NCBI RefSeq assembly: GCF_036507355.1
Contig: NZ_AP027877.1
Length of the DNA: 64,000 bases
Reading direction: 5' to 3' (one strand)
Source of the DNA: Escherichia coli
Lineage (GTDB): Bacteria; Pseudomonadota; Gammaproteobacteria; Enterobacterales; Enterobacteriaceae
Position 1 is the stretch's first letter. The number at the start of each line of letters is the position of its first letter. Shown here piece after piece: positions 46,127-64,000 of this stretch. The notes under the pieces are model-generated. The model had not been told where the DNA came from, searched no databases, and worked only from the letters and a program-made list of their open reading frames with translations. The position numbers and the translations under genes were made by a program.

Positions 46127-47320
46127 ATGCTCACTGATACACAATGCCGCACTGCCAAACCGAAAGAAAAACTCTATCGACTCAATGATTTCAACGGTCT
46201 CTACCTCGAAGTGAAACCCAATGGTAAAAAGGCTTGGCGTTATCGGTTTAAGCTCAACGGTAAATCCAGCATGTTTGCGCTAGGTGAGTACCCGACGGTC
46301 AAGCTTGCCGAGGCTCGAGAAAAATGCGAGCAAGCGCGAAAGCAGGTTGCGGAAGGAGTCAACCCAGCGCAAGCTCGTCAGTTAGATAAGATTCGTAAGG
46401 TTAACGACGCATCCAACACCTTTGAGCTGATCGCCAAAGAGTGGCTGCAGATGAAAGACTGGGCCGAAATTACCAAAACACGCCGACTGGATATGCTTGA
46501 ACGTGTGGTTTTCCCCTCAATCGGTAAGCTTCCAGTCAGAGAGATCACCCCACACCATATCCTTAAAATTCTTCAGGAAACTGCCAAACGAGGAGCACCG
46601 ACAGTTGCCGCAGAAGCCCGTCGCACCATTTCATCAGTTTTCGAGTTGGCTGTGGCAACGCTTAGAGCTGATAGCGATCCTGTCTGGCCTGTACGCAAGG
46701 CACTTCCGGCGAATAAGACACAGCACAAACAGGCATTGAATCCACAGCAAATCGGGAAGCTATTAAGCTGTTTTGATAACAGTCGCGGCTCATATCAGGT
46801 TAACTATTGCATGTGGCTAATGTGGTGGACGCTGGCGCGACCAGCCGAAGTCACCGAGGCAGAGTGGGCAGAGTTCGATCTTGGTAACGCACTGTGGACC
46901 ATTCCGGCAAGGCGTATGAAAGCTCGTAGGGAACATGTTATTCCCCTTCCTTCCCAAGCCGTCAACATGCTCAAAACACTACAAGGATTAACCGGGCATA
47001 GGCAGCATCTTTTTCCGGGCAGGGATAATCCGCTAGGCCCAATGACATCGCACTCTCTGCGTCAACTACTTAAAAGCCTCGGATGGAATGGCACTTATAG
47101 CCCCCATGCTACCAGAACTACAGGAAGTACGCGTTTAAACGAAATGGGCTATCGACCTGATGCTATTGAGGCCCAACTTGCGCACGCTGATACCAACAAT
47201 GTTCGTCGCACATACAACCATGCAACTTATCTTGATGAGCGAAAGGTTATGATGCAAGACTGGGCAGATAAACTTGAAGGATGGGTAGGAAGCACACACA
47301 GCAATATTGATGTTTCGTAA
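46127..47320 (+). CDS. int: P4-type tyrosine integrase (island integrase)
   Basis: 397-aa ORF with the N-terminal arm-binding-like region typical of P4-family integrases and a C-terminal catalytic region ...HSLRQLLKSLGWNGTYSPHATRTTGSTRLNEMGYRPDAIEAQLAHADTNNVRRTYNHATY (R..H..R..Y). Confidence 0.85.
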   Translation: MLTDTQCRTAKPKEKLYRLNDFNGLYLEVKPNGKKAWRYRFKLNGKSSMFALGEYPTVKLAEAREKCEQARKQVAEGVNPAQARQLDKIRKVNDASNTFELIAKEWLQMKDWAEITKTRRLDMLERVVFPSIGKLPVREITPHHILKILQETAKRGAPTVAAEARRTISSVFELAVATLRADSDPVWPVRKALPANKTQHKQALNPQQIGKLLSCFDNSRGSYQVNYCMWLMWWTLARPAEVTEAEWAEFDLGNALWTIPARRMKARREHVIPLPSQAVNMLKTLQGLTGHRQHLFPGRDNPLGPMTSHSLRQLLKSLGWNGTYSPHATRTTGSTRLNEMGYRPDAIEAQLAHADTNNVRRTYNHATYLDERKVMMQDWADKLEGWVGSTHSNIDVS

Positions 47321-51504: not shown

Positions 51505-54500
51505 TTAAATATCTTCTGGTGATTCCCCCAGATACATCTTACGGTAATGATACACTTCAAAGAATTTCCCCTTGTCTTTGTAACTACTGATAAAGTAGCA
51601 ATGTGTTAAATACTTTAGCAGGATCTCATTACCTTCAGTTTTGTGAACTTTTGCTCGTTTGGTTTTATCCGCAATCAAATTATATTCTTCCGACACGAAG
51701 GCCATAAGCGCACGATTGATGTATTCAAAAGGCAGTTCTTCACACTCTAAAAGATGATTCAAAAACACAAGTCGAGTGTCATCTTCCGAAACATTAAGAA
51801 GGAGTGCTATACTGACTTTACTATTTAGGCTTATATGGTCGAAGAAACTATTGGTATAGTGCGGCCAGAGAACATTGATGATTGAAACTTTAGTCGTCAA
51901 CTCTATATCGTCATCATTGAGCACAAGCTCAATAAGTTCATTATCGAAATCTTCGTCATCTTGCAGATAAAACTCAATATTATTTTCAAAAACAGCAAGG
52001 TTGTTTCTAATCATAAGCGACAGACACTCATTGAGGCCCTTGCGACGTTGTCCCTCATAAATGCTGAGTACGTCTTCATAGAGCGCTTCTGACAGCAAAA
52101 CTCTGTTGCTCTCACAAAGTGCTTTAAATTTTGTCAGTGGCAGGTCACTGATTACCTTGTCGATACTTACAGGCAGCACGCTGATCAACTGTGCATATAA
52201 CGCGTCTGGCTTATCCGCTGCTGAAATGATGTGATTCACAACATTATCAATAGACTCCTCAGGAACACTGACCTTATGGCCTGAAAGCACCTCTGGATGG
52301 TGAGCAAAAAACGCCCACAATATCTCATCGTCGACATCGGTATACATGTAGTTAAATATGTTATCCCAGTTGGCAGCGACACGCCCATGTTTAAACAAGA
52401 GGTCATAAACAGTGAATGACGCACCCTCAACTACCGATAGCCTGATATTTTCAACTGTCGACAACTGCTGAACTTCAAAATCCATGTTTTCAATTATAAT
52501 TTCTTTGGAACGCTCAGTAGCGTCTGAATTAATTAGTGAAATAACGGATCCAACGCTTTCCTCAGAATGAATGAAATATTCCACAATAAACATCTCAAGG
52601 TTTGTATTTACAGCCTCAATTAAGCATGGGACTTTTTCACTCATAATTAAGGTATATGGATTGCGCGATAGTTCCTCAACATTCTTTCTGTTATTAGAGT
52701 ACGCATTAAACAGTGCAGTGAGGTTATTAATATTAAATACATACAGAAAATTCTCTGCGATAAACTTCACCAACGTACGTTCACTTTCATCGTTAGCTTC
52801 ATTGACGCTATCGAATACAATATTGAGCTCTTTTAATTTTATGCTGAATGACGCAATCTCATCGGGTCGTATGTATGTAAACAACGTAGTGTCTGTTTTT
52901 AATTCATGCAGATAATCCTGAACAGCACTTTGTCGGGTAATGTTTTCTATCAGACCAAAACGAAGTAATGACACAAATAACTGCTGATAAAAATCATCAT
53001 CAGAGTCAATGTCACGGTAAGTACTCATCGCCGCCATCAATTTACCCAATGTCTTTTCATCGCTTAAAATTAAATTAATTAAGTCATGATAGTCATCATT
53101 ACTAAATTCATAAAAATACGTCCGCATAGTGCGAATGATTAAGCCATGTGAGCAATAATTAAATAAATGAATAAAAACATCACGGGCAAAACCAGCTCGG
53201 CAGTTGATCAAAAAGCTAATTATATGCGGATGAAAAATCCCCTCGTAATATTTAAATGATAGCGACTCCATTTTATCTACAACATTGGAAACGTTATTCA
53301 GATGAATATCTTTTAACTCCTCAAAATTCACCTTAGCAGCGACCTTCTGGATATAAACATTATCTGATTTACTTAATGCACCTGCATGGAAGATAGAGCG
53401 ATATTGCATGTAATCCTGCTCAATATATCCATTTGACAACATGAAAAACAACAATTCCATATTGAAATTAATCGCTGAAGGCTTGGATGCATTTTTATTT
53501 CCCTTATCGTCAGTTGATGCAACATTAAGCAACCACTCACTCAATTTCGCTAAGGTTATTTTTTCACATAATTCATGAAGTGATAGGCCATTTCGTTGAT
53601 TAAGAACACGCTGTGTGTTTAAAATATTTTTAGATAATTGCTCAACGGTTTTTTGGTTCTTATCTAAAATAACTGGTGAGCGTTTGTTATATTCACGTAA
53701 ACTCTCAGCTCGCTTATTATGTGGAATTTGGAAGGTATCTTGATATTCATACCCGTTTCTTGAATATGTGATAGCTATTCCGGATGGAAGCTCTCTGTTC
53801 AGAAAATCACAAAACAATGATTCATCCCCACAAAGTTCAACAAAGCTCCAGCTACTCCCAACTTGCCCATACTTATTATGGCTTATATAAAACACTGTAT
53901 TCGATTCAATTTGTTCAGGAAGATAACGCCTTAGAATTTCAACCCTCAGATTTAAACTGGATGTTTGCAATTCCTTTTGTACTTTCACCAACTTTTCTTT
54001 CTGCTGAGAAATCTTTATTTCCAAATCTTTAAAATACACGTCATGTAGCGTTCTCTTAGAGTAAGCATTAACTATTCTGTATAAAAAACCATCCTGATTA
54101 TCAAGCAGAGTGAAATCTTTGGTACATAAATTTTTATACATTATCAAAGAAAATAACTTCACATCAGAAATCTCACCCGTAATTAATTTTTTAAAAATAT
54201 TAAATTCATTTATAACATTATTCATCACCCGCATATCAGTCAGGTAAAGGGATACTTTCTTGAAAAACTGCTCTTTATCTACCGAATTAAAGTTTATAAC
54301 TTTACTACTTAATATGTCATACGCATTCTCACTATCTACTGCAGGTATAATCGGCACAATAAAATCAAAAAATTTTGTTTGTGATTCAGCATCCTTTAAT
54401 AAATCCTCCCTGACTGCAAAAATAAATTTAATCGGTTTCTTTTCCAATAGTCTGGAATTGTTTATCACTTGATTTATTTCACGGAGCTTAATAAAAATAT

Positions 54501-55407
54501 GACCATTGTTTAAACGGTCTAAATCTTCAAATACGACAACTCTATACTTTGTTTTAAGGAAGAAGTAAACAATCTCATCAATATACAAATTTAGCAGAGA
54601 AGCTGTATTCTGTTTTTCCGCCGCAATTTCTGCCTTTAAGAGATTTACTTTATCAAGAGCAATTTTTCTGTCAAAAAATCCTATCCGATAAAAACGAGAC
54701 AGCAGATACCAACAAATGATAAATGATAGCGAACCGATACATCCCCAACGCCATACCGGATGTATCGCAATGAAATGACTCACCGCTGACGGTAATGAAA
54801 ACGTGTTGATAATTTTTTGAGGAAACAACAATGTAGTGACAACGATTGTCAGTATGAGAACAAAAAACAGCAAACAGGATGTTATTAGTATTTGCCCAAC
54901 ACTTCGGGTGTGAATGCGCTCTACCCGCGAATCTGGCAGCGTACCTTTATCCACTTTGTATAAAATCTGCTGTAATATGCTGTATTCAATGCTTTGTTCT
55001 TTTGATAAAGACTCGGAACTTTTTAGTGTCTCATCCGTTTCAAAGTTTGCCAGTGAGATAATCACGTGCTCATCCGCTGGTTTTAAACTTGTAAACCTGA
55101 GCCAATATTTCAGGCGGTGCCACAACCGCTTTCGCCCTTCAATTTTTTTAAGGTATGAGAGAATAACCGAGCTTTTACCCGCGCCATAGGACCCCGTGAT
55201 GGCGATGTTCTTCACATCATCCCGGCTGAGGGCATAATCCAACGCCTTAAAATAGGGTTGATATCCCTCTTTATCAGGATCGACAATCGGTGTTAGCGTT
55301 TGGAATTCCCTTTCCGTTCCTGAATTGTTTTCTGAAGTAACCTGAAGCCTTGCGACTGTTTTATGCAACCAGTCTGCGATCGTTTTCAACCCGAAAGACA
55401 GCGCCAT
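51505..55407 (-). CDS. Large (1300 aa) KAP/YobI-like P-loop NTPase with transmembrane hairpin inserted between Walker A and Walker B; long C-terminal region of unknown function. Candidate defence/conflict protein
   Basis: Walker A ITGSYGAGKSSV (about aa 70-81), two hydrophobic helices (about aa 171-195 ILITSCLLFFVLILTIVVTTLLF and 215-236 HPVWRWGCIGSLSFIICWYLL), Walker B-like VVVFEDLDR (about aa 290-298); Lys/Asn/Ile/Phe-rich composition; gene is conspicuously AT-rich versus flanks. Confidence 0.75.
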   Translation of the reverse strand: MALSFGLKTIADWLHKTVARLQVTSENNSGTEREFQTLTPIVDPDKEGYQPYFKALDYALSRDDVKNIAITGSYGAGKSSVILSYLKKIEGRKRLWHRLKYWLRFTSLKPADEHVIISLANFETDETLKSSESLSKEQSIEYSILQQILYKVDKGTLPDSRVERIHTRSVGQILITSCLLFFVLILTIVVTTLLFPQKIINTFSLPSAVSHFIAIHPVWRWGCIGSLSFIICWYLLSRFYRIGFFDRKIALDKVNLLKAEIAAEKQNTASLLNLYIDEIVYFFLKTKYRVVVFEDLDRLNNGHIFIKLREINQVINNSRLLEKKPIKFIFAVREDLLKDAESQTKFFDFIVPIIPAVDSENAYDILSSKVINFNSVDKEQFFKKVSLYLTDMRVMNNVINEFNIFKKLITGEISDVKLFSLIMYKNLCTKDFTLLDNQDGFLYRIVNAYSKRTLHDVYFKDLEIKISQQKEKLVKVQKELQTSSLNLRVEILRRYLPEQIESNTVFYISHNKYGQVGSSWSFVELCGDESLFCDFLNRELPSGIAITYSRNGYEYQDTFQIPHNKRAESLREYNKRSPVILDKNQKTVEQLSKNILNTQRVLNQRNGLSLHELCEKITLAKLSEWLLNVASTDDKGNKNASKPSAINFNMELLFFMLSNGYIEQDYMQYRSIFHAGALSKSDNVYIQKVAAKVNFEELKDIHLNNVSNVVDKMESLSFKYYEGIFHPHIISFLINCRAGFARDVFIHLFNYCSHGLIIRTMRTYFYEFSNDDYHDLINLILSDEKTLGKLMAAMSTYRDIDSDDDFYQQLFVSLLRFGLIENITRQSAVQDYLHELKTDTTLFTYIRPDEIASFSIKLKELNIVFDSVNEANDESERTLVKFIAENFLYVFNINNLTALFNAYSNNRKNVEELSRNPYTLIMSEKVPCLIEAVNTNLEMFIVEYFIHSEESVGSVISLINSDATERSKEIIIENMDFEVQQLSTVENIRLSVVEGASFTVYDLLFKHGRVAANWDNIFNYMYTDVDDEILWAFFAHHPEVLSGHKVSVPEESIDNVVNHIISAADKPDALYAQLISVLPVSIDKVISDLPLTKFKALCESNRVLLSEALYEDVLSIYEGQRRKGLNECLSLMIRNNLAVFENNIEFYLQDDEDFDNELIELVLNDDDIELTTKVSIINVLWPHYTNSFFDHISLNSKVSIALLLNVSEDDTRLVFLNHLLECEELPFEYINRALMAFVSEEYNLIADKTKRAKVHKTEGNEILLKYLTHCYFISSYKDKGKFFEVYHYRKMYLGESPEDI

Positions 55408-55668
55408 TGAGTGTCCTCACAATCACGAATATTAAATTCATAAATTGGAGACAATCCTAACATGAATCAAAAGAATCATCACACAATCATGTAGTTAAAA
55501 GAACAAGCTGGAACCTGATTTTTTATAGCATTTTCACGCAGCACAGTTTTTGCCCACGATAGTATCACCGGATTACGCTCACTCAAGATCAAGCTTATCG
55601 TACACCCGCACTACATATCAGCTACACCCATCACCGTAACCGAGTCCCATCGATATTCACTGACTAGT

Positions 55669-55713
55669 GTTGATACACCCATATAGATATATATACCCAT
55701 TGAGTGTATCAAC
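55669..55713. promoter_or_regulatory. Inverted repeat GTTGATACAC-N25-GTGTATCAAC upstream of the NTPase gene
   Basis: Perfect 10-bp arms at 55669-55678 and 55704-55713 flanking an AT-rich spacer (atatagatatatat); lies between the putative rep gene stop and the NTPase start. Confidence 0.35.
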
Positions 55714-55765
55714 TGATGGATTACATGCGTCTAAACGCTTATAGACATCCTGTCTTATGGACAAA

Positions 55766-56638
55766 CTACTTACGGGTTCTCACCCCAGAGGTAAATGTCA
55801 GTCCAGTAAACCCCATCTCATCCTGCTTACATAACGCCCGTGCCAACAGAACAGGCGGCAGCCTGTGTTTGGGGGTACGGCGTTTTCCTGCCTCATCAGG
55901 ATAAGGTCTTACTTCCAGCCACATCCCCTTGAAGCAGTATGTTACCTGCTCGTCAAAATCCTTCAGCTTCTGGCTTTTCATCGGCCGACTGATTATCCCC
56001 GCTCTGGCCCGCATATTTTTATCCCTCTTCATCGCCTTTCTTAGCGTTTTGAGCGCCCCCGGCTCTCTCGGCATCAGTAGATGCAGGTGAGGCATCCAGC
56101 GCTGGATATCGGTGTGAAAATCCAACTCGTAGTCACCCACTATTTTGCCCGTAAATCCGGCTCTTTTTATCATCTTGTAGACCCGCTCCCGGAACTTCTT
56201 ATGATCCCAGCGGCTGATCTCGTCTTCTTTCAGCATGGCATCGTAATAAACCAGCGTAACCACTCTGTACGCGCCCTTAGAGGCCCTCAGTGGGAGCAAT
56301 TCAGTCAGCTTACGTAACCTGTGCAGGCGGAAACACTGTGGGCAGGCCGCGCTACCACATTGATGTTCTGGCATACAGCCCTCCAGTTTTCTCTTTAACC
56401 GAAACATCCGCCCTCGCCACTTTTTGTGTGCTTTTCTGACTTCTTTGCTCTCATCCTGATTATCATTCCTGTTCTGCCGCACAGCCTTTCGTATTGCTTT
56501 TATGCGGTACAGGCGTTCCTTCTCCATTTGCTCCCGGGTTTCAAAACCCGGAATGGTAAGAGCTAACTTTTCCAGTTGGCGCTCTTCTTCTGTCAGTGAT
56601 GCATACACTGCTCGCGCAATACGGTTTGTACCAAACAT
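55766..56638 (-). CDS. Putative HUH-type replication initiation protein (inovirus Gp2-like), island-encoded
   Basis: Contains HLHLL (His-hydrophobic-His) motif in WMPHLHLLMPREP and a Cys cluster CGSAACPQC; start placed at Met 56638 directly after the alpA stop (track ORF overlaps alpA by 50 bp). Confidence 0.45.
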   Translation of the reverse strand: MFGTNRIARAVYASLTEEERQLEKLALTIPGFETREQMEKERLYRIKAIRKAVRQNRNDNQDESKEVRKAHKKWRGRMFRLKRKLEGCMPEHQCGSAACPQCFRLHRLRKLTELLPLRASKGAYRVVTLVYYDAMLKEDEISRWDHKKFRERVYKMIKRAGFTGKIVGDYELDFHTDIQRWMPHLHLLMPREPGALKTLRKAMKRDKNMRARAGIISRPMKSQKLKDFDEQVTYCFKGMWLEVRPYPDEAGKRRTPKHRLPPVLLARALCKQDEMGFTGLTFTSGVRTRK

Positions 56639-56639
56639 A

Positions 56640-56834
56640 TCAGCAACCTCCTCTGGTCCCACGGGAAGCAATCCACTCATTGACTTCACTTTCCAGCCAG
56701 GCCACCGCTCGTCCTCCTGTCAGGGATTTTTGGCGTGGGAAAGTCCCTTTTTCAATCATCCGGTACAGTGTGGCGCGGCTCACCGCACAGCGTTCCAGCA
56801 CAGCCTGAATTTTGACCAGTTTCATATCATTCAT
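56640..56834 (-). CDS. alpA: AlpA-family phage/island transcriptional regulator (MerR-like HTH)
   Basis: 64-aa ORF MNDMKLVKIQAVLERCAVSRATLYRMIEKGTFPRQKSLTGGRAVAWLESEVNEWIASR, the AlpA signature. Confidence 0.8.
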   Translation of the reverse strand: MNDMKLVKIQAVLERCAVSRATLYRMIEKGTFPRQKSLTGGRAVAWLESEVNEWIASRGTRGGC

Positions 56835-56941
56835 GTTTCAACGTTCCTCAACAAGGAAAGGGAACGCGCTATTAACAAGATCCAAAATCGGGGCTCTGTG
56901 AGGGGGGGGTTGGGACGTCTACTGGCTCGTTTCATACCTAT

Positions 56942-57547
56942 TTGTCGGGCCGACACTTTATGTCCATTGTCGGTCCGACAAAAGAGTCGTTAGAATGCTC
57001 AAAAATGAATGCATCAACGGGAGTTCGCGTGACAGGAAAAAGGCAGACCAGCCGCCAGAAACGGTCAGATAAAATGAGGAAAAATGCAGGATTGACTCAA
57101 GTGAAGGTTTACCTGGATGAAACCACTCTGCAGTTACTGGGGTTACTTCAGGAAAATATGTCAGAAGGTGATATGAAGGGTGATGAGGTCAATATGTTCC
57201 GTAGCATGGCTATAACGGCCAGTATCCACACCCTGGCAAAAGAACGACTGGGGGAACAAGAAGTATCGCATATGGTGATCAAGAACCTCGGTGCTGACTG
57301 CCCATCCGACGAAGCGACAGAAAACCCACGTAAGTTTCTTCTCCGGACGATGATTAACCACCTGTATGATAATGGCACACACAATCCGCACCGCCGTCGA
57401 TTGTCAGAAGTGGCTGGAATTATGAATGAAAGCAGTTTCAGGAACCCGAAGAACAAAAAAGGGGGATGGAGTGAAAATGATATCAGTCACTATGTCAGCA
57501 ATGACATAAAACTGGAAAATGATACCTCGGTTGATGTACCGGGCTAA
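56942..57547 (+). CDS. Hypothetical protein divergent from alpA; possible ribbon-helix-helix regulator (start uncertain)
   Basis: Internal segment MRKNAGLTQVKVYLDETTLQLLGLL resembles an RHH beta-strand/helix; real start may be one of the internal Met codons (about 57005 or 57074). Confidence 0.35.
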   Translation: MSGRHFMSIVGPTKESLECSKMNASTGVRVTGKRQTSRQKRSDKMRKNAGLTQVKVYLDETTLQLLGLLQENMSEGDMKGDEVNMFRSMAITASIHTLAKERLGEQEVSHMVIKNLGADCPSDEATENPRKFLLRTMINHLYDNGTHNPHRRRLSEVAGIMNESSFRNPKNKKGGWSENDISHYVSNDIKLENDTSVDVPG

Positions 57548-57760
57548 GCAAATCTATACACCAATATATTTATCTCTGGAATACCCTGGTCGGGGAGCAC
57601 GAATTAGTTATTCATCAGGGGTGGTGAGTTGGTCGTGCTTTCCCGGAAGGCAGGTGCGCCAACGCCAGTACTTGGTATACCTGTGGGCTATCAAAAATAG
57701 TCTCTGGCCCCGTTTGATGGTTTTAACCAACAGGCTGCGGTGGTCATCCCCCATGAAAGC

Positions 57761-58708
57761 TTACCAGCAACATAGCGCCCTGGAGGCTCTGTCTACAGCC
57801 TGCCTGCCCCTACAGTCATAGCGTGTGGTCGTGGATATATCCGCATGTCCTGCCAACTGGCGCACCACATTAATGTCCACTCCCTGCTCCAGCAGGCGGG
57901 TGATGAATGTCCGTCGCAGGTCGTGGGGGGTGAAGTAATCCACTTCTGCAGCTTCGCGTAACTGCGCCAACAGCCCTGTAAGACCCGTGGTGGTAAGCCG
58001 TTGTCGTCCTGGCTGCCCCGCACGACTGATGCGACTGAACAGCGGCCCGGCATGATACCCCCGGAGCTTCAGCCATCGCCGCAGTTGCATGCAGACTTTT
58101 CCGGAAAGGTGGATTTCCCGGATTTTGCGCCCCTTTCCCTGCCTGACAATCACGATCCCCGTGGCTACATCTATATCTCCCACGTCCAGGGCTACCAGTT
58201 CGGCGGCACGCAGACCTGCGCCACACAGAAGCAGCAAAATAGCCCGATTACGCTGGCAACGTACAGCGTCAGCCTTTCCGGCCGCCGCCAGCATGGCCCG
58301 AATTTCGGTCCTGTCCAACGCCCTGCCCAAGCGGGTGGCACTGCCAGTGACACGCCTGACTGAACGTATGCGCGTCAGTCTGTCAGCATCCAGAATCCCC
58401 ATACTGAAAGCCGCTCCGGCAACCGATTTCAGCGCCGACAGCGCCATGTTCACCGTGGCAACAGCATAGCCCTCATCCAGCAGCACCGAGCGTACCCGCA
58501 TCACGCTCGTGTAGTCCAACGTATGCCAGGGGTAGGTGTCGGGCTTCGCCCCCGGACGGAGGATACCGGCACATCGTCGGAGTAAGCTTTGCATCCCCCT
58601 GCGCCCGGCTGGCGTCAGGCTTGCCAGCCACAGCAATGCTGGGTTGATGGAGAGGGCATTTTGCGGGTGGACAGATGCCGCGCGTTTACCATTGCGGCTC
58701 GTGGTCAT
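57761..58708 (-). CDS. Tyrosine-type site-specific recombinase (XerC/XerD-like), GC-rich
   Basis: 315-aa ORF with catalytic region ...FTPHDLRRTFITRLLEQGVDINVVRQLAGHADISTTTRYD (R..H..R..Y) and LCGAGLRAAELVALDVGDID box; visibly GC-richer than neighbouring island genes. Confidence 0.7.
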   Translation of the reverse strand: MTTSRNGKRAASVHPQNALSINPALLWLASLTPAGRRGMQSLLRRCAGILRPGAKPDTYPWHTLDYTSVMRVRSVLLDEGYAVATVNMALSALKSVAGAAFSMGILDADRLTRIRSVRRVTGSATRLGRALDRTEIRAMLAAAGKADAVRCQRNRAILLLLCGAGLRAAELVALDVGDIDVATGIVIVRQGKGRKIREIHLSGKVCMQLRRWLKLRGYHAGPLFSRISRAGQPGRQRLTTTGLTGLLAQLREAAEVDYFTPHDLRRTFITRLLEQGVDINVVRQLAGHADISTTTRYDCRGRQAVDRASRALCCW

Positions 58709-58784
58709 AATATCATCCTTATTATTGATAGTGGGATATCCCGGTCAGGTCTGACCGGGAGTGAGGGTTAATATGTCTTCGTAG

Positions 58785-59405
58785 TCAGCGTTTTTTCACA
58801 CCATAATGCTGAAGGTAGCGATTCAGGCTCCGACCAGCGCCAGTCTCAAAATTCCATGTCCGCCAGATAAGCTGCCCCACTGTGTCGCGTATCACCAACC
58901 GGAAGTGGGTATGCAGGTCATCCTCAATGGCGACATTTTTATACGTCGCAACCACAGCCTCTGCTTCCAAACGAGTAAACGAATCTGGGGGCAGTTGTGG
59001 CGTCTGTATTGTGGGCTCTGGTGCTGCGCGGTCAGGACGTGAATGCCGTCCCTGTGTGATGTGACTGACGGCTTGGTAACTGCTCTGCCTCAGAAGTCCG
59101 GTGGTCTTCCTTGCCCGGAGAATATCAATGGAGGTAATGTGCGGAGACTGGGGGATAAAGCTGACATTACCCTGGTCTGTACGTACCAGGTCGTACTTTT
59201 CAACAATAGAATTCAGGGCCTCCGTCAGTGATATCTCTGCATCAATGTATGCCTGAATGGCACCTTTCCCGCTAAACGGCGTGTCGCTGAGAGTGAGTCC
59301 GTAGTGCTTCTCCAGCAAGTAAGCCAGCAGAGTGTGCCAGACATCAGCAGGGGACAGGCAACACGATAGTGTCCGATTTGGTGAGACCGGTTGTTTTTTC
59401 ATCAC
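58785..59405 (-). CDS. CbtA/YeeV-family type IV toxin homolog with about 80-aa C-terminal extension
   Basis: First ~125 aa align by eye to CbtA (..[35 protein letters not shown]..); ORF continues to 206 aa. Confidence 0.65.
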
Positions 59406-59511
59406 TGTATTCTCGCGGATAACATTGAAAAAGACGCGCGAACGTGAACATCAATTGAACGTCCGCACTTATTGGAATCCGTCGGCCAGACGGGCAAAAA
59501 GTGACTTCCAT

Positions 59512-59895
59512 CTACTGTCCCGAAGACCGGGAAGCCATGGGATAAATGGCGATATATACGTAGCCACAGGAGCCGAGCGTGTTAGCCTCGCAGATCAGCC
59601 CTTCTACCTGTAGCGTGATCCCCTTCGCCCTGCGCGGGTCCAGTTCACCGGACAGCAGAATGCTTTCCATCTGCCTCATGAGCAGCGGAAATATCTGGTC
59701 CAGATGGCGTGCGTCTCTGTCGCTGAACGTACCGGTGAATTCAGCCCGGTCAGCCAGAAAATGCAGGCAGCCGCCCTCCTGCACCAGACGCGCCCCGAAG
59801 CATGGCGTCACGTTGCACTGTAGCCCCCACAGATCTGTGGGTGGCGTATCGTAGTCTTTCAGATCTGTCATGTCAGGTGTCCTCAAAAGTCGCAC
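59512..59895 (-). CDS. CbeA/YeeU-family antitoxin homolog
   Basis: 127-aa ORF with ..LWGLQCNVTPCFGARLVQEGGCLHFLADRA..HLDQIFPLLMRQ..SGELDPRR.. matching the CbeA family pattern; immediately upstream of the toxin. Confidence 0.7.
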   Translation of the reverse strand: MRLLRTPDMTDLKDYDTPPTDLWGLQCNVTPCFGARLVQEGGCLHFLADRAEFTGTFSDRDARHLDQIFPLLMRQMESILLSGELDPRRAKGITLQVEGLICEANTLGSCGYVYIAIYPMASRSSGQ

Positions 59896-59931
59896 TGCCA
59901 GTGCATCAATCTGGCAATGCTGGGTAGTTCT

Positions 59932-60369
59932 TCAGCTTTCCCACAGCACGCGCGTGGTGTAGACCCCGCTGGCGTAGTAGCTCAGGAAGTTACGCTCCCA
60001 CAGGCTGTAAAGCGCCCTTACTTCCGTTAGAGGCAAATCCCCCGTACAGTAGTGCCAGACATAGCCCTGCGACCAACTGATATCGATGATTTTCTCCAGC
60101 TCCGGGTAGACCGTGCCGACATAGCCAAAATCGGTGGCGTAGTCCAGGCACCACTCATCGCCCTGATGAATTAGCCGGATCTCCACCGGGTGATAACCCC
60201 CCCGCTCCACACTGTAGTCCGGGTCCCGGAAGTTGAATGTCACGGCGGTGATCCGATGTTTATGGGCGGGTATTTCGCCCGCCTCTGCCATCAGCAGTTC
60301 GTACAGTTGCAGACTGACAGGCAGCATAAAGCCTGCCGGCTGAATAACGGCATTGATGTTCAAGAGCAA
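59932..60369 (-). CDS. Hypothetical protein between radC-like gene and antitoxin
   Basis: 145-aa ORF, no motif recognised; occupies the position of the small DUF987 gene in CP4-like modules but is about twice as long. Confidence 0.4.
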   Translation of the reverse strand: MLLNINAVIQPAGFMLPVSLQLYELLMAEAGEIPAHKHRITAVTFNFRDPDYSVERGGYHPVEIRLIHQGDEWCLDYATDFGYVGTVYPELEKIIDISWSQGYVWHYCTGDLPLTEVRALYSLWERNFLSYYASGVYTTRVLWES

Positions 60370-60454
60370 AACCTCAGTGTTTACAGTTTAAAAAAACGTG
60401 AAGGGATAAAGCGGACGTGTCTTAGCGTGGATAATGTGTATTAAACCAGGTAAC

Positions 60455-60943
60455 TCACAGTAGCCCGTGTTCAGCGAAAGACCAGGCTTTGTCGCCTCCC
60501 ACAATGAGATGGTCGGTCACGCGGATATCCAGCAACGCCAGTGCGTCTGTAATTTTTTGGGTAATGAGTTTATCGGCCTGGCTCGGTTCAGGCTCACCAC
60601 TGGGATGGTTATGCACCAGTATCACAGCAGCAGCGTTGTGCGTCAGTGCCAAGCTGACTATTTCGCGGGGATAAACCATCGTCTGGCTCAGCGTACCGAT
60701 AAACAATGTCTGGTAGCCGAGAATATGATGTTGCTGTGAAAGCATTATCACACCAAAAGATTCACGGTTTTCAAGCGCCAGCTTCATCACCAGCCACTGA
60801 CGTACATCTTCAGATGAGGTGATTTTTCGGCGATTGCGAAACTGGCGGGTCAGCAATGAATGGGCAAACCGGATAATCTGTTCGCGGGTAACCGGCTCCA
60901 GCGTCTGATAATGACCGCTACGATCACTTGCGATAAACGTCAT
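60455..60943 (-). CDS. RadC-like JAB/MPN-domain protein (YeeS/YfjY-like)
   Basis: JAMM motif HNHPSGEPEPSQAD and C-terminal DHLIVGGDKAWSFAEHGLL; start set to Met 60943 to avoid overlap with upstream ORF (alternative 60997). Confidence 0.7.
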   Translation of the reverse strand: MTFIASDRSGHYQTLEPVTREQIIRFAHSLLTRQFRNRRKITSSEDVRQWLVMKLALENRESFGVIMLSQQHHILGYQTLFIGTLSQTMVYPREIVSLALTHNAAAVILVHNHPSGEPEPSQADKLITQKITDALALLDIRVTDHLIVGGDKAWSFAEHGLL

Positions 60944-60965
60944 GATGTACTCCTTACCTTTTAGT

Positions 60966-61589
60966 TCAGAATTCACGTTCAACAAAGTAAATGGCATCCG
61001 GCAGCAACGTATGGCGCTTCAGCTCAGGTTGTACTGAAAACGTGTCCTTTCGCTGGCTGCGTATCCCCAGGCTATCAAACAAAAACAACCGGGTAGCATC
61101 GGTACGAACCACCACTGACCAGTGCCATGTGGTCCCCATAATCACCACGCGCTGCGCCTGATTCTCCGGTGAAGCCAGCCAGTCGCTGATATCATGAAAT
61201 ATTCGGTGAGTTCTCAAGGTTCGATAACGGAAGGGAGTATGAAAATAGAGGGGATAATGTTGGGCGTAATGCCCTCTCAGCAGAACATCTGCTATCAGGT
61301 GGTCCATCTGCTCTTCATCCAGGCCAAGCGTCAGGAGATCAAATAAGTCCCATCGTCGCTTATAGCTGCTTAGCAGGCGGTACATTAATTTTTCCCGCCT
61401 TACCCTGCCGTCATAGAGGTAACTCAGGGTATTAATCAGGCTGTAGATGCCACACAAATAGTCATGCTGTCCCTGGCGGGACGCATGAACGTCTCGAGGA
61501 AGTGTCATTGTAAATTTCCGGGATAAGTGATGGCTGTGAACCAGCCGGAATGGTGGTGATACAGTGGCTGAGCGCATGATGGCAGCCAC
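60966..61589 (-). CDS. Hypothetical protein with conserved-looking Cys and His (possible cysteine-hydrolase fold)
   Basis: 207-aa ORF; LCGIYSL near N-terminus and HWSVVV near C-terminus; sits where CP4-like elements usually carry an anti-restriction gene but does not resemble ArdB/KlcA by eye. Confidence 0.4.
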   Translation of the reverse strand: MAAIMRSATVSPPFRLVHSHHLSRKFTMTLPRDVHASRQGQHDYLCGIYSLINTLSYLYDGRVRREKLMYRLLSSYKRRWDLFDLLTLGLDEEQMDHLIADVLLRGHYAQHYPLYFHTPFRYRTLRTHRIFHDISDWLASPENQAQRVVIMGTTWHWSVVVRTDATRLFLFDSLGIRSQRKDTFSVQPELKRHTLLPDAIYFVEREF

Positions 61590-61665
61590 TGTATAAATTA
61601 TAACAAAATCAATACATTAATGCAAGTGATTCTTGTTATCACTTATCCAGCGACTCCTTCACTTG

Positions 61666-62046
61666 TTACTGGTTAACGTCTCCTTCAGACAGGTCCCTTG
61701 CAACCTGAGCCAGAGCCTGCTGCAAAAGTTTATCCCTAGAGGCCGGTTTCATGGTACGGAACAACTGTATCCACAGGTTAAGCTGCTCGTCTGCTGAAGT
61801 ATCTGCCGCATCCCGCTCACTTTTCAACGCCATCCCTGCCGCGCTGATATGGTACAGAAACCCCTTCCCACTGGTGCGTTTGCGGCGGATTTCCGGATGT
61901 AGGGCTGTGAGCTTTTCCAGACGTAGCCGCGCCCATTTCGCTGTGCCCGGCATTCCTTCCATTCCGGCAAACTGCTCTGCTGTAAGCCACTCCCCACTGT
62001 CCGTCATTCCGGCATCACAGGGCTCAGTCATCTGTTCACTGCTCAT
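61666..62046 (-). CDS. Hypothetical acidic protein, possible DNA-binding regulator
   Basis: 126-aa ORF MSSEQMTEPCDAGMTDSGEWLTAEQFAGMEGMPGTAKWARLRLEKL...; the left end of IS5 abuts its 5' region. Confidence 0.4.
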   Translation of the reverse strand: MSSEQMTEPCDAGMTDSGEWLTAEQFAGMEGMPGTAKWARLRLEKLTALHPEIRRKRTSGKGFLYHISAAGMALKSERDAADTSADEQLNLWIQLFRTMKPASRDKLLQQALAQVARDLSEGDVNQ

Positions 62047-62077
62047 AAAATTTCACCTCTTATCAAAGCGTTAGTTA

Positions 62078-63272
<1,195 letters not shown>

Positions 63273-63416
63273 CTAAATGAGCGCAAATAACCACAAAAGG
63301 AACTTGATAACTTCCCTTTGTTTGCTTTTAATATCTCCGGTACTAACAACCCGGAGTGAATACATTGAGTAACTCAACAGATTCGCAAAAAAAAGCGAAG
63401 TAAGGGAAGTGCTGTT

Positions 63417-63635
63417 AACTGGCACCGGGCAGATATTGTCGCCGCCCTGCATAAGCGGGGACTTTCCCTGTCAGCTCTCTCCCGGCAACACGGGCTGGCT
63501 TCCAGGACGCTGAATAACGCTTTTGAGCGCCACTATCCGCGGGCGGAAAAGATTATTGCGGAGGCACTGAACACTACGCCCGAAACCATCTGGCCTGAGC
63601 GCTATGCAGGTAGGTCTGTCAAAAACGAAAGCTGA
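63417..63635 (+). CDS. Ner/Nlp-like DNA-binding protein, lacking an in-frame ATG start (possibly truncated)
   Basis: Frame encodes NWHRADIVAALHKRGLSLSALSRQHGLASRTLNNAFERHYPRAEKIIAEALNTTPETIWPERYAGRSVKNES, resembling Ner-like regulators; no ATG between the upstream stop (63366-63368) and this segment. Confidence 0.45.
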   Translation, partial: NWHRADIVAALHKRGLSLSALSRQHGLASRTLNNAFERHYPRAEKIIAEALNTTPETIWPERYAGRSVKNES

Positions 63636-63647
63636 AGAAAGCATGTT

Positions 63648-64000
63648 ATGTCGACCACCATTACTGAAGTAACGGAATGCTTTGAGTACCTTTTTAGTTC
63701 CCTTTACCGGAAAGCATTTGTCAAAACCCTGCGCCTTAACGAATGCAGTGAACGGGAGTTGCTACCGCTGGTACGCTGCTACCTGCTGGGTTGGTTTGCC
63801 GACAGCGTCTCACCGGAAGTCCGGGGGAAACTGCCCGGCAGTATCTCCGGGCATGGCTATATTGATTTCGTCATTGACGATGTGGCAGTGGAGTTCGCCG
63901 TCCGTAAGCCAGGAGCCGCCCGTTCTGCACTGTCAGCCTCAGTCAACAGCACGGAGGTAAAGAAACTGATGAAGTATGACGGCAAAGCCCTGCTGGTACT
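63648..64000 (+). CDS. Hypothetical protein, 5' portion (ORF runs off window end)
   Basis: ATG at 63648 opens MSTTITEVTECFEYLFSSLYRKAFVKTLRLNECSERELLPLVRCYLLGWFADSVSPEV... with no stop before position 64000. Confidence 0.4.
   Translation, partial: MSTTITEVTECFEYLFSSLYRKAFVKTLRLNECSERELLPLVRCYLLGWFADSVSPEVRGKLPGSISGHGYIDFVIDDVAVEFAVRKPGAARSALSASVNSTEVKKLMKYDGKALLV

Follow-up and report, generated by a model that had tools for sequence, protein, structure and literature searches.

At the locus described here, the last gene of a RadC–DUF2787–CbeA–toxin block encodes a CbtA-type toxin domain that runs on in frame into a DUF905 domain, and the block as a whole lies in a P4-integrase island adjoining ychF. 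The window, by which we mean the entire 64,000-nt stretch of Escherichia coli DNA that was analysed, contains the features collected in Table 1. An uninterrupted minus-strand open reading frame fills positions 58785–59405, exactly where a first, sequence-only reading of the window had placed it. Read from a GTG at 59405 it would encode 206 aa (58785..59405, minus strand); the ATG three nucleotides further in is the more likely start, as the 205-aa length that it gives is that of the matching database proteins.

Table 1. Features of the fusion locus and its surroundings, in window coordinates.
Feature	Position	Strand	Remarks
CbtA-DUF905 fusion ORF	58785..59402	-	205 aa from ATG at 59402; TGA stop 58785-58787
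CbtA-toxin domain	59064..59402	-	residues 1 to ~113; Pfam PF06755
Inter-domain linker	58995..59063	-	~residues 114-136; Pro/Ala/Ser-rich, predicted disordered
DUF905 (YkfF/UPF0401-like) domain, complete	58788..58994	-	~residues 137-205
cbeA-toxin spacer	59403..59511	-	109 nt, intergenic
CbeA/YeeU-family type IV antitoxin gene	59512..59871	-	119 aa (PGAP); Pfam PF06154 E=1.9e-45
DUF2787 gene	59932..60369	-	Pfam PF10980 E=4e-34
RadC-like JAB-domain gene	60455..60943	-	Pfam PF04002 E=4.9e-43; first recognisable block member
207-aa ORF	60966-61589	-	matches relatives' 180-aa gene
XerC/D-like tyrosine recombinase	57761..58708	-	315 aa; Pfam PF00589 E=2.4e-32; directly downstream of fusion
YobI-like P-loop NTPase, intact	51505-55407	-	1300 aa; Pfam E=1.3e-96
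P4-type integrase	46127-47320	+	ychF end of island

The two halves of the protein share one reading frame, and both score well above their Pfam cut-offs. With residues numbered on the 206-aa form, positions 2–113 match CbtA_toxin (Pfam PF06755) over the full profile (1–112 of 112; E=1.6e-38; 131.6 bits, cut-off 25 bits), and positions 137–205 match DUF905 (Pfam PF06006) over profile positions 2–70 of 70 (E=5.6e-29; 100.4 bits, cut-off 22.3 bits). The toxin domain is 48–51% identical to K-12 CbtA and YkfI, which bears out the family assignment made from the letters alone, and in alignment its homology to K-12 CbtA (124 aa) reaches about residue 124 of the fusion, leaving the toxin part untruncated. 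The extension of about 80 residues that had been noticed beyond this point is likewise real, and consists of a linker of about 23 residues and a whole DUF905 domain. At 205 aa and with a second folded domain, the protein lies outside the single-domain size range of the CbtA family (~105–130 aa); its DUF905 part, lying in frame behind CbtA, is not a free-standing protein of 70–110 aa with a start codon of its own.

The AF2 model of the fusion comprises two confidently predicted domains joined by a disordered linker, with a pTM of 0.48 that leaves the inter-domain geometry undefined. Helices in the toxin domain span residues 18–34, 48–54, 59–69 and 91–100, and the means of 10-residue blocks across the toxin core are mostly 88–95, falling to ~71–76 at residues 71–90, where residues 80–83 lie below 50. 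Linker residues 109–132 have pLDDT values below 50. The DUF905 domain is predicted to fold as a helix (144–153), three strands and a second helix (189–200); it is 52% identical to E. coli YkfF, for which there is an NMR structure (PDB 2HJJ; phmmer E=4.1e-23), and it has the YkfF fold. Taken together, we judge the ORF to encode one genuine two-domain protein, a CbtA toxin joined by a flexible Pro-rich linker to a complete DUF905 domain.

The setting of the gene resembles that of the type IV toxins CbtA (YeeV), YkfI and YpjF, which reside in the K-12 cryptic prophages CP4-44, CP4-6 and CP4-57 beside their respective antitoxins CbeA, YafW and YfjZ. The K-12 toxins and the fusion have in common the homologous N-terminal 112–124 residues and a CbeA-family gene directly upstream, and each closes a block of genes that includes RadC and lies on an island with an integrase. 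They differ in that the K-12 toxins are 113–124 aa long with F65, whereas the fusion in the window is 205 aa long with a linker, a DUF905 domain and S65. The module differs too, having DUF2787 upstream in place of DUF987 and a tyrosine recombinase downstream instead of the DUF5983/yeeW gene of K-12. DUF2787 sits between RadC and CbeA, the place held by DUF987 (YeeT/YkfH) in canonical CP4-type modules, and this synteny is conserved in E. coli, Salmonella and metagenome loci; the DUF2787 variant of the CP4-type module appears to be uncharacterised. The recombinase keeps its place in those window-type and main-clade loci that were examined, and the neighbourhood of a separate clade of 193-aa fusions differs. 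RadC is preceded by two conserved hypothetical genes, whose products measure 180 and 126 aa in relatives. The 180-aa gene corresponds to the ORF of 207 aa at 60966–61589, which has no Pfam, NCBIfam, PADLOC or PHROG match; for the 126-aa gene, related loci show no precomputed Pfam match. Over positions 55397–64000 the window is 99.98% identical to strain ET729, from which, near-identical otherwise, the YobI-like NTPase is missing; the same cargo follows the toxin module in two Salmonella loci (L003, L004).

The CbeA-like antitoxin that the sequence-only reading had seen upstream of the toxin is indeed there, directly upstream and in the same orientation, and would be 127 aa long if read from an upstream GTG at 59895. 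Where the gene is present it is under purifying selection, with a between-clade ω of 0.11–0.25. The spacer that separates it from the toxin gene has stayed conserved across clades that are saturated at synonymous sites and, by alignment, survives deletion of cbeA in one lineage; it may hold a promoter or regulatory leader of the toxin gene. A consensus promoter scan gave nothing convincing in 59403–59511, and a promoter and terminator scan of the module gave nothing above shuffled expectation.

Such an antitoxin does not accompany every fusion. In the EC2641-type lineage, found in 6 complete genomes and in metagenome contigs, cbeA is lost by a clean ~390-bp deletion, with the conserved leader of about 110 nt kept and the fusion ORF intact. 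In the 193-aa clade, listed in 1599 index blocks, an adjacent CbeA gene is absent from all eight contexts examined, which span several genera, and the fusion ORF is again intact; in all eight the gene comes after a truncated DUF932 gene or an IS66 element. This form adjoins an AraC-type regulator, sometimes with CBASS-like genes (SAVED, ThiF, JAB, nucleotidyltransferase) alongside. Antitoxin-less fusion loci include L008 (6861–7003), L009 (6501–6955) and L027–L034, NZ_CP147109 and NZ_CP075722 are examples of antitoxin-less genomes, and in several antitoxin-less genomes the fusion is the only cbtA-like locus detected by blastn. These lineages weakly hint that the fused protein is tolerated without an adjacent antitoxin. 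As proof of non-toxicity we have downgraded them, because K-12 shows normal growth without any of its three CbeA-type antitoxins (PMC5371832) and unfused orphan cbtA genes exist as well.

The toxin domain departs from the canonical toxins at a position of known functional weight. The window's protein has S65 where these have F65. In all 14 fused proteins this position is occupied by S, A, T or D, whereas 97 of the 101 genuine homologues without a fusion have F there; a few unfused toxins, Salmonella ones among them, also lack F65 (P0043, P0061, P0079, P0119). The loss of F65 in the fusions is one ancestral event, not 14 independent ones. In CbtA, YkfI and YpjF, the F65S substitution abolishes FtsZ binding, and MreB-dependent toxicity stays, giving spherical cells (Heller et al., PMC5624674). 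The R15C substitution weakens MreB binding in CbtA only, and an R15C/F65S double mutant has no toxicity (PMC5624674). The window's protein also has C15, which we dropped as a sign of lost MreB binding, since YpjF and YkfI carry C15 naturally (PMC5624674). Because every fused toxin lacks F65, FtsZ would no longer be blocked by them; we suggest that the fused clade has lost or altered its FtsZ interaction and may act through MreB or on a changed target.

Tagged K-12 proteins bear on what a C-terminal domain might do to such a toxin. Since His6-CbtA-GFP is still toxic (PMC5624674), attaching something to the C-terminus is not in itself enough to inactivate the toxin. The toxicity of YpjF, on the other hand, is reportedly abolished by a C-terminal His-tag (Brown and Shaw, as cited in PMC5371832), and therefore a C-terminal domain might attenuate the toxin.

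As to the partner, the sequence-only reading had offered, as one of two possibilities, a fusion with a downstream small ORF after loss of a stop codon. The toxin was indeed joined to a small gene that is normally free-standing; the partner, though, is DUF905 and not the DUF5983/yeeW gene downstream, and the event is old. What comes after an unfused cbtA, and overlaps with it, is DUF5983/yeeW and not DUF905, and we therefore reject simple read-through into the usual downstream ORF. No unfused cbtA–DUF905 neighbour pair was found among the closest relatives checked (P0020, P0024, P0079), and no second DUF905 gene was found in the stretches of fused islands examined. Free DUF905 genes occur in two settings. 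In canonical islands they lie several genes upstream of cbeA–cbtA, as ykfF does in CP4-6; there they sit upstream of DUF932, or of an antirestriction gene in K-12, and islands of the Klebsiella type have the order DUF905, DUF932, antirestriction, RadC, DUF987, CbeA, CbtA. In plasmid leading regions, a location noted elsewhere as well (PMC12826799), they lie beside ArdA, ParB, PsiB and PsiA. The free DUF905 nearest to the fused clade in our tree, P0122, is found on plasmid-like contigs (L021–L023) in a leading-region array of DinI, methylase, antirestriction, ArdA, DNA polymerase III theta, DUF905, ParB-like, PsiB and PsiA genes, a context that suggests a role for DUF905 during plasmid establishment. 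The small proteins of the YkfF/DUF905/UPF0401 family (PDB 2HJJ) are thus free-standing elsewhere and fused behind a toxin here; compared with the YkfF type, the DUF905 part of the fusion has lost its own start codon and first few residues, and its clade has QHTH where free YkfF-type members usually have QG[ST]H. A homologue search with the DUF905 domain alone as a short query returned only 3 matches and added little.

The fusion is widespread and common among gut bacteria. A full-length ORF is present in 37 of 5426 complete E. coli genomes, 24 of them with copies at 98.6% nucleotide identity or more, 11 at ~71% and 2 at ~66%, and the same fusion occurs in Salmonella and on metagenome contigs. 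Contig counts stand at 256 for the exact 205-aa protein of the window, at 1000 or more for a nearly identical 205-aa form, and at 966 for the 193-aa form; the last has spread with identical sequence over E. coli, Citrobacter, Kluyvera and Salmonella. Full-length fusions in the databases come from Escherichia, Salmonella, Klebsiella, Citrobacter and Kluyvera and mostly bear the name ‘DUF905 family protein’. The extension is therefore unusual for the CbtA family, as first claimed, but not rare in databases, and the possibility raised at the time that it might prove to be a common annotated variant has largely come true, the 205-aa and 193-aa forms being found on hundreds to thousands of contigs. 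We found no NCBIfam model for the CbtA–DUF905 fusion; PADLOC matched neither the fusion nor its neighbours except for a weak JAB match on RadC, and only unknown-function families were matched among PHROGs. The fusion is absent from the titles and abstracts of the seven papers found to mention DUF905, and no functional study of YkfF, YubL or UPF0401 was found in the literature.

Selection was gauged by Nei–Gojobori counting on codon alignments of eight copies from three deep clades. Between clades, synonymous sites are saturated (dS ~0.8–1.3 for the toxin part, >1.1 for the DUF905 part), and ω is 0.2–0.4 for the CbtA domain and 0.06–0.15 for the DUF905 domain, against a baseline of 0.24 for K-12 cbtA versus ykfI. 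Both domains are under purifying selection, even though the toxin domain evolves fast inside the main clade (ω 0.3–1.0). In a neighbour-joining tree of DUF905 domains the fused copies form one clade with common QHTH and GQLIWR motifs; from this monophyly we infer a single, old, in-frame fusion of a cbtA and a DUF905 gene that would since have been kept as one reading frame. Translation as a single chain is something that we likewise infer, from conservation alone. Of the two ideas offered at the outset, that of a genuine extended toxin variant is the one supported by the conserved frame, by the selection on both domains and by the recurrence of the ORF among complete genomes.

RefSeq/PGAP presents these copies otherwise, splitting each into a short ‘DUF905 family protein’ and a pseudogene labelled ‘TA system toxin CbtA family protein, incomplete, missing C-terminus’. 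The model behind this annotation, which takes the cbtA part for a decayed pseudogene without its C-terminal end and has DUF905 translated independently from an internal start, has in its favour that every copy is annotated so, that the DUF905 half is the more constrained, and that toxin-half ω rises to ~1 in some close comparisons. Yet the toxin part, aligning with canonical CbtA as far as it does, is complete, carries no stop codon or frameshift, and shows between clades an ω at the level of the canonical paralogues, none of which fits a pseudogene. Nor do the clades share a start for DUF905: no conserved internal start codon or Shine–Dalgarno motif was found at the domain junction, around which copies of the 193-aa clade lack any in-frame ATG, GTG or TTG. 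The starts chosen by PGAP vary between clades, giving products of 56, 54, 69 and 82 aa, and truncate the DUF905 fold in its first helix; in the window the start is V150, within helix 144–153. The linker, moreover, differs among the three clades in sequence as well as in length (~23, 24 and 12 codons), and still the frame through it stays open, with in-frame indels only and zero stop codons. We consider independent translation of DUF905 very unlikely on these grounds, and judge the split to be a wrong call. A recent loss of a stop codon, or an assembly or sequencing error peculiar to the window, is an explanation that we regard as extremely improbable. Extended ORFs are often artefacts, and frameshifted versions do occur among metagenome reads (P0016, P0017, P0021, P0124); against it stand the intact ORF, 98.6–100% identical, in 24 independent complete genomes, the exact protein on the 256 contigs mentioned above, and an architecture conserved at 56–67% amino-acid identity in other clades. 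No sign of an error was seen near 59030, where the sequence-only reading had advised a check.

A further hypothesis, nested within that of a genuine fusion, is that DUF905 neutralises or gates the toxin in cis, making a self-limiting protein for which CbeA would be dispensable. Two independent fusion lineages, the EC2641 type and the 193-aa clade, have lost the adjacent cbeA with the ORF intact, and the fusion is the sole cbtA-like locus detected by blastn in several of the antitoxin-less genomes, both of which favour gating. We nonetheless think it unlikely.

The interpretation that we prefer, and hold to be probable, is that of a genuine fused protein of single old origin, with an altered-target toxin domain and an accessory DUF905 module. 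A cbtA gene and a DUF905 gene would have fused once, in frame and long ago, the latter being a small gene that is normally free-standing in the same kind of island and in plasmid leading regions. From then on, enterobacterial islands would have retained its product as one polypeptide, the copy in the window being paired with an intact CbeA. Without F65, the toxin domain would no longer block FtsZ and would act, if at all, by the MreB/elongation route or on a changed target, and the tethered DUF905 domain would play an accessory role, in targeting, in regulation or in binding a partner, and not a catalytic one. With its F65 replaced in nature, the fused clade may provide a naturally occurring variant in which the two functions of a dual FtsZ/MreB inhibitor are separated.

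Both halves of the fusion come from known families and full-length sequences are public, so that it adds no new sequence space. It is, however, an uncharacterised variant of the type IV toxin–antitoxin family obscured by its annotation, the systematic labelling as a pseudogene and a truncated protein hiding it from toxin–antitoxin mining. We know of no function for DUF905/YkfF, whose structure was solved in 2006. The family is common in enterobacterial islands and plasmid leading regions, and its fusion to a toxin is a first concrete lead to its partners. Read as a ‘Rosetta stone’, the fusion would imply that DUF905 proteins either cooperate physically with CbtA-type toxins or share their cytoskeletal targets, an idea that we put forward as a tentative possibility, one that may well be wrong. 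If it is right, the fused form would be a toxin with a changed target or with control over itself, acting on MreB only or gated by its C-terminal domain. Free DUF905 proteins would then be third components, so far overlooked, or modulators, both of type IV CbtA/CbeA systems and of plasmid establishment.

The copy in the window differs from the widespread allele by five nonsynonymous changes (G56E, A80V, G107S, N155K and Q163L) against two synonymous ones. Nearly all members of the CbtA family (119 of 121) have a glycine at position 56, and position 163 is an invariant Q in the fusions. The window's own copy may therefore be drifting, by strain-specific decay or attenuation, although the family is conserved. 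A different kind of alteration is seen in a metagenome protein of 207 aa (P0018), in which the toxin domain and linker (residues 1 to ~136) are joined to the C-terminus of the downstream 315-aa integrase; this chimera is presumably a deletion product from which the DUF905 domain was removed.
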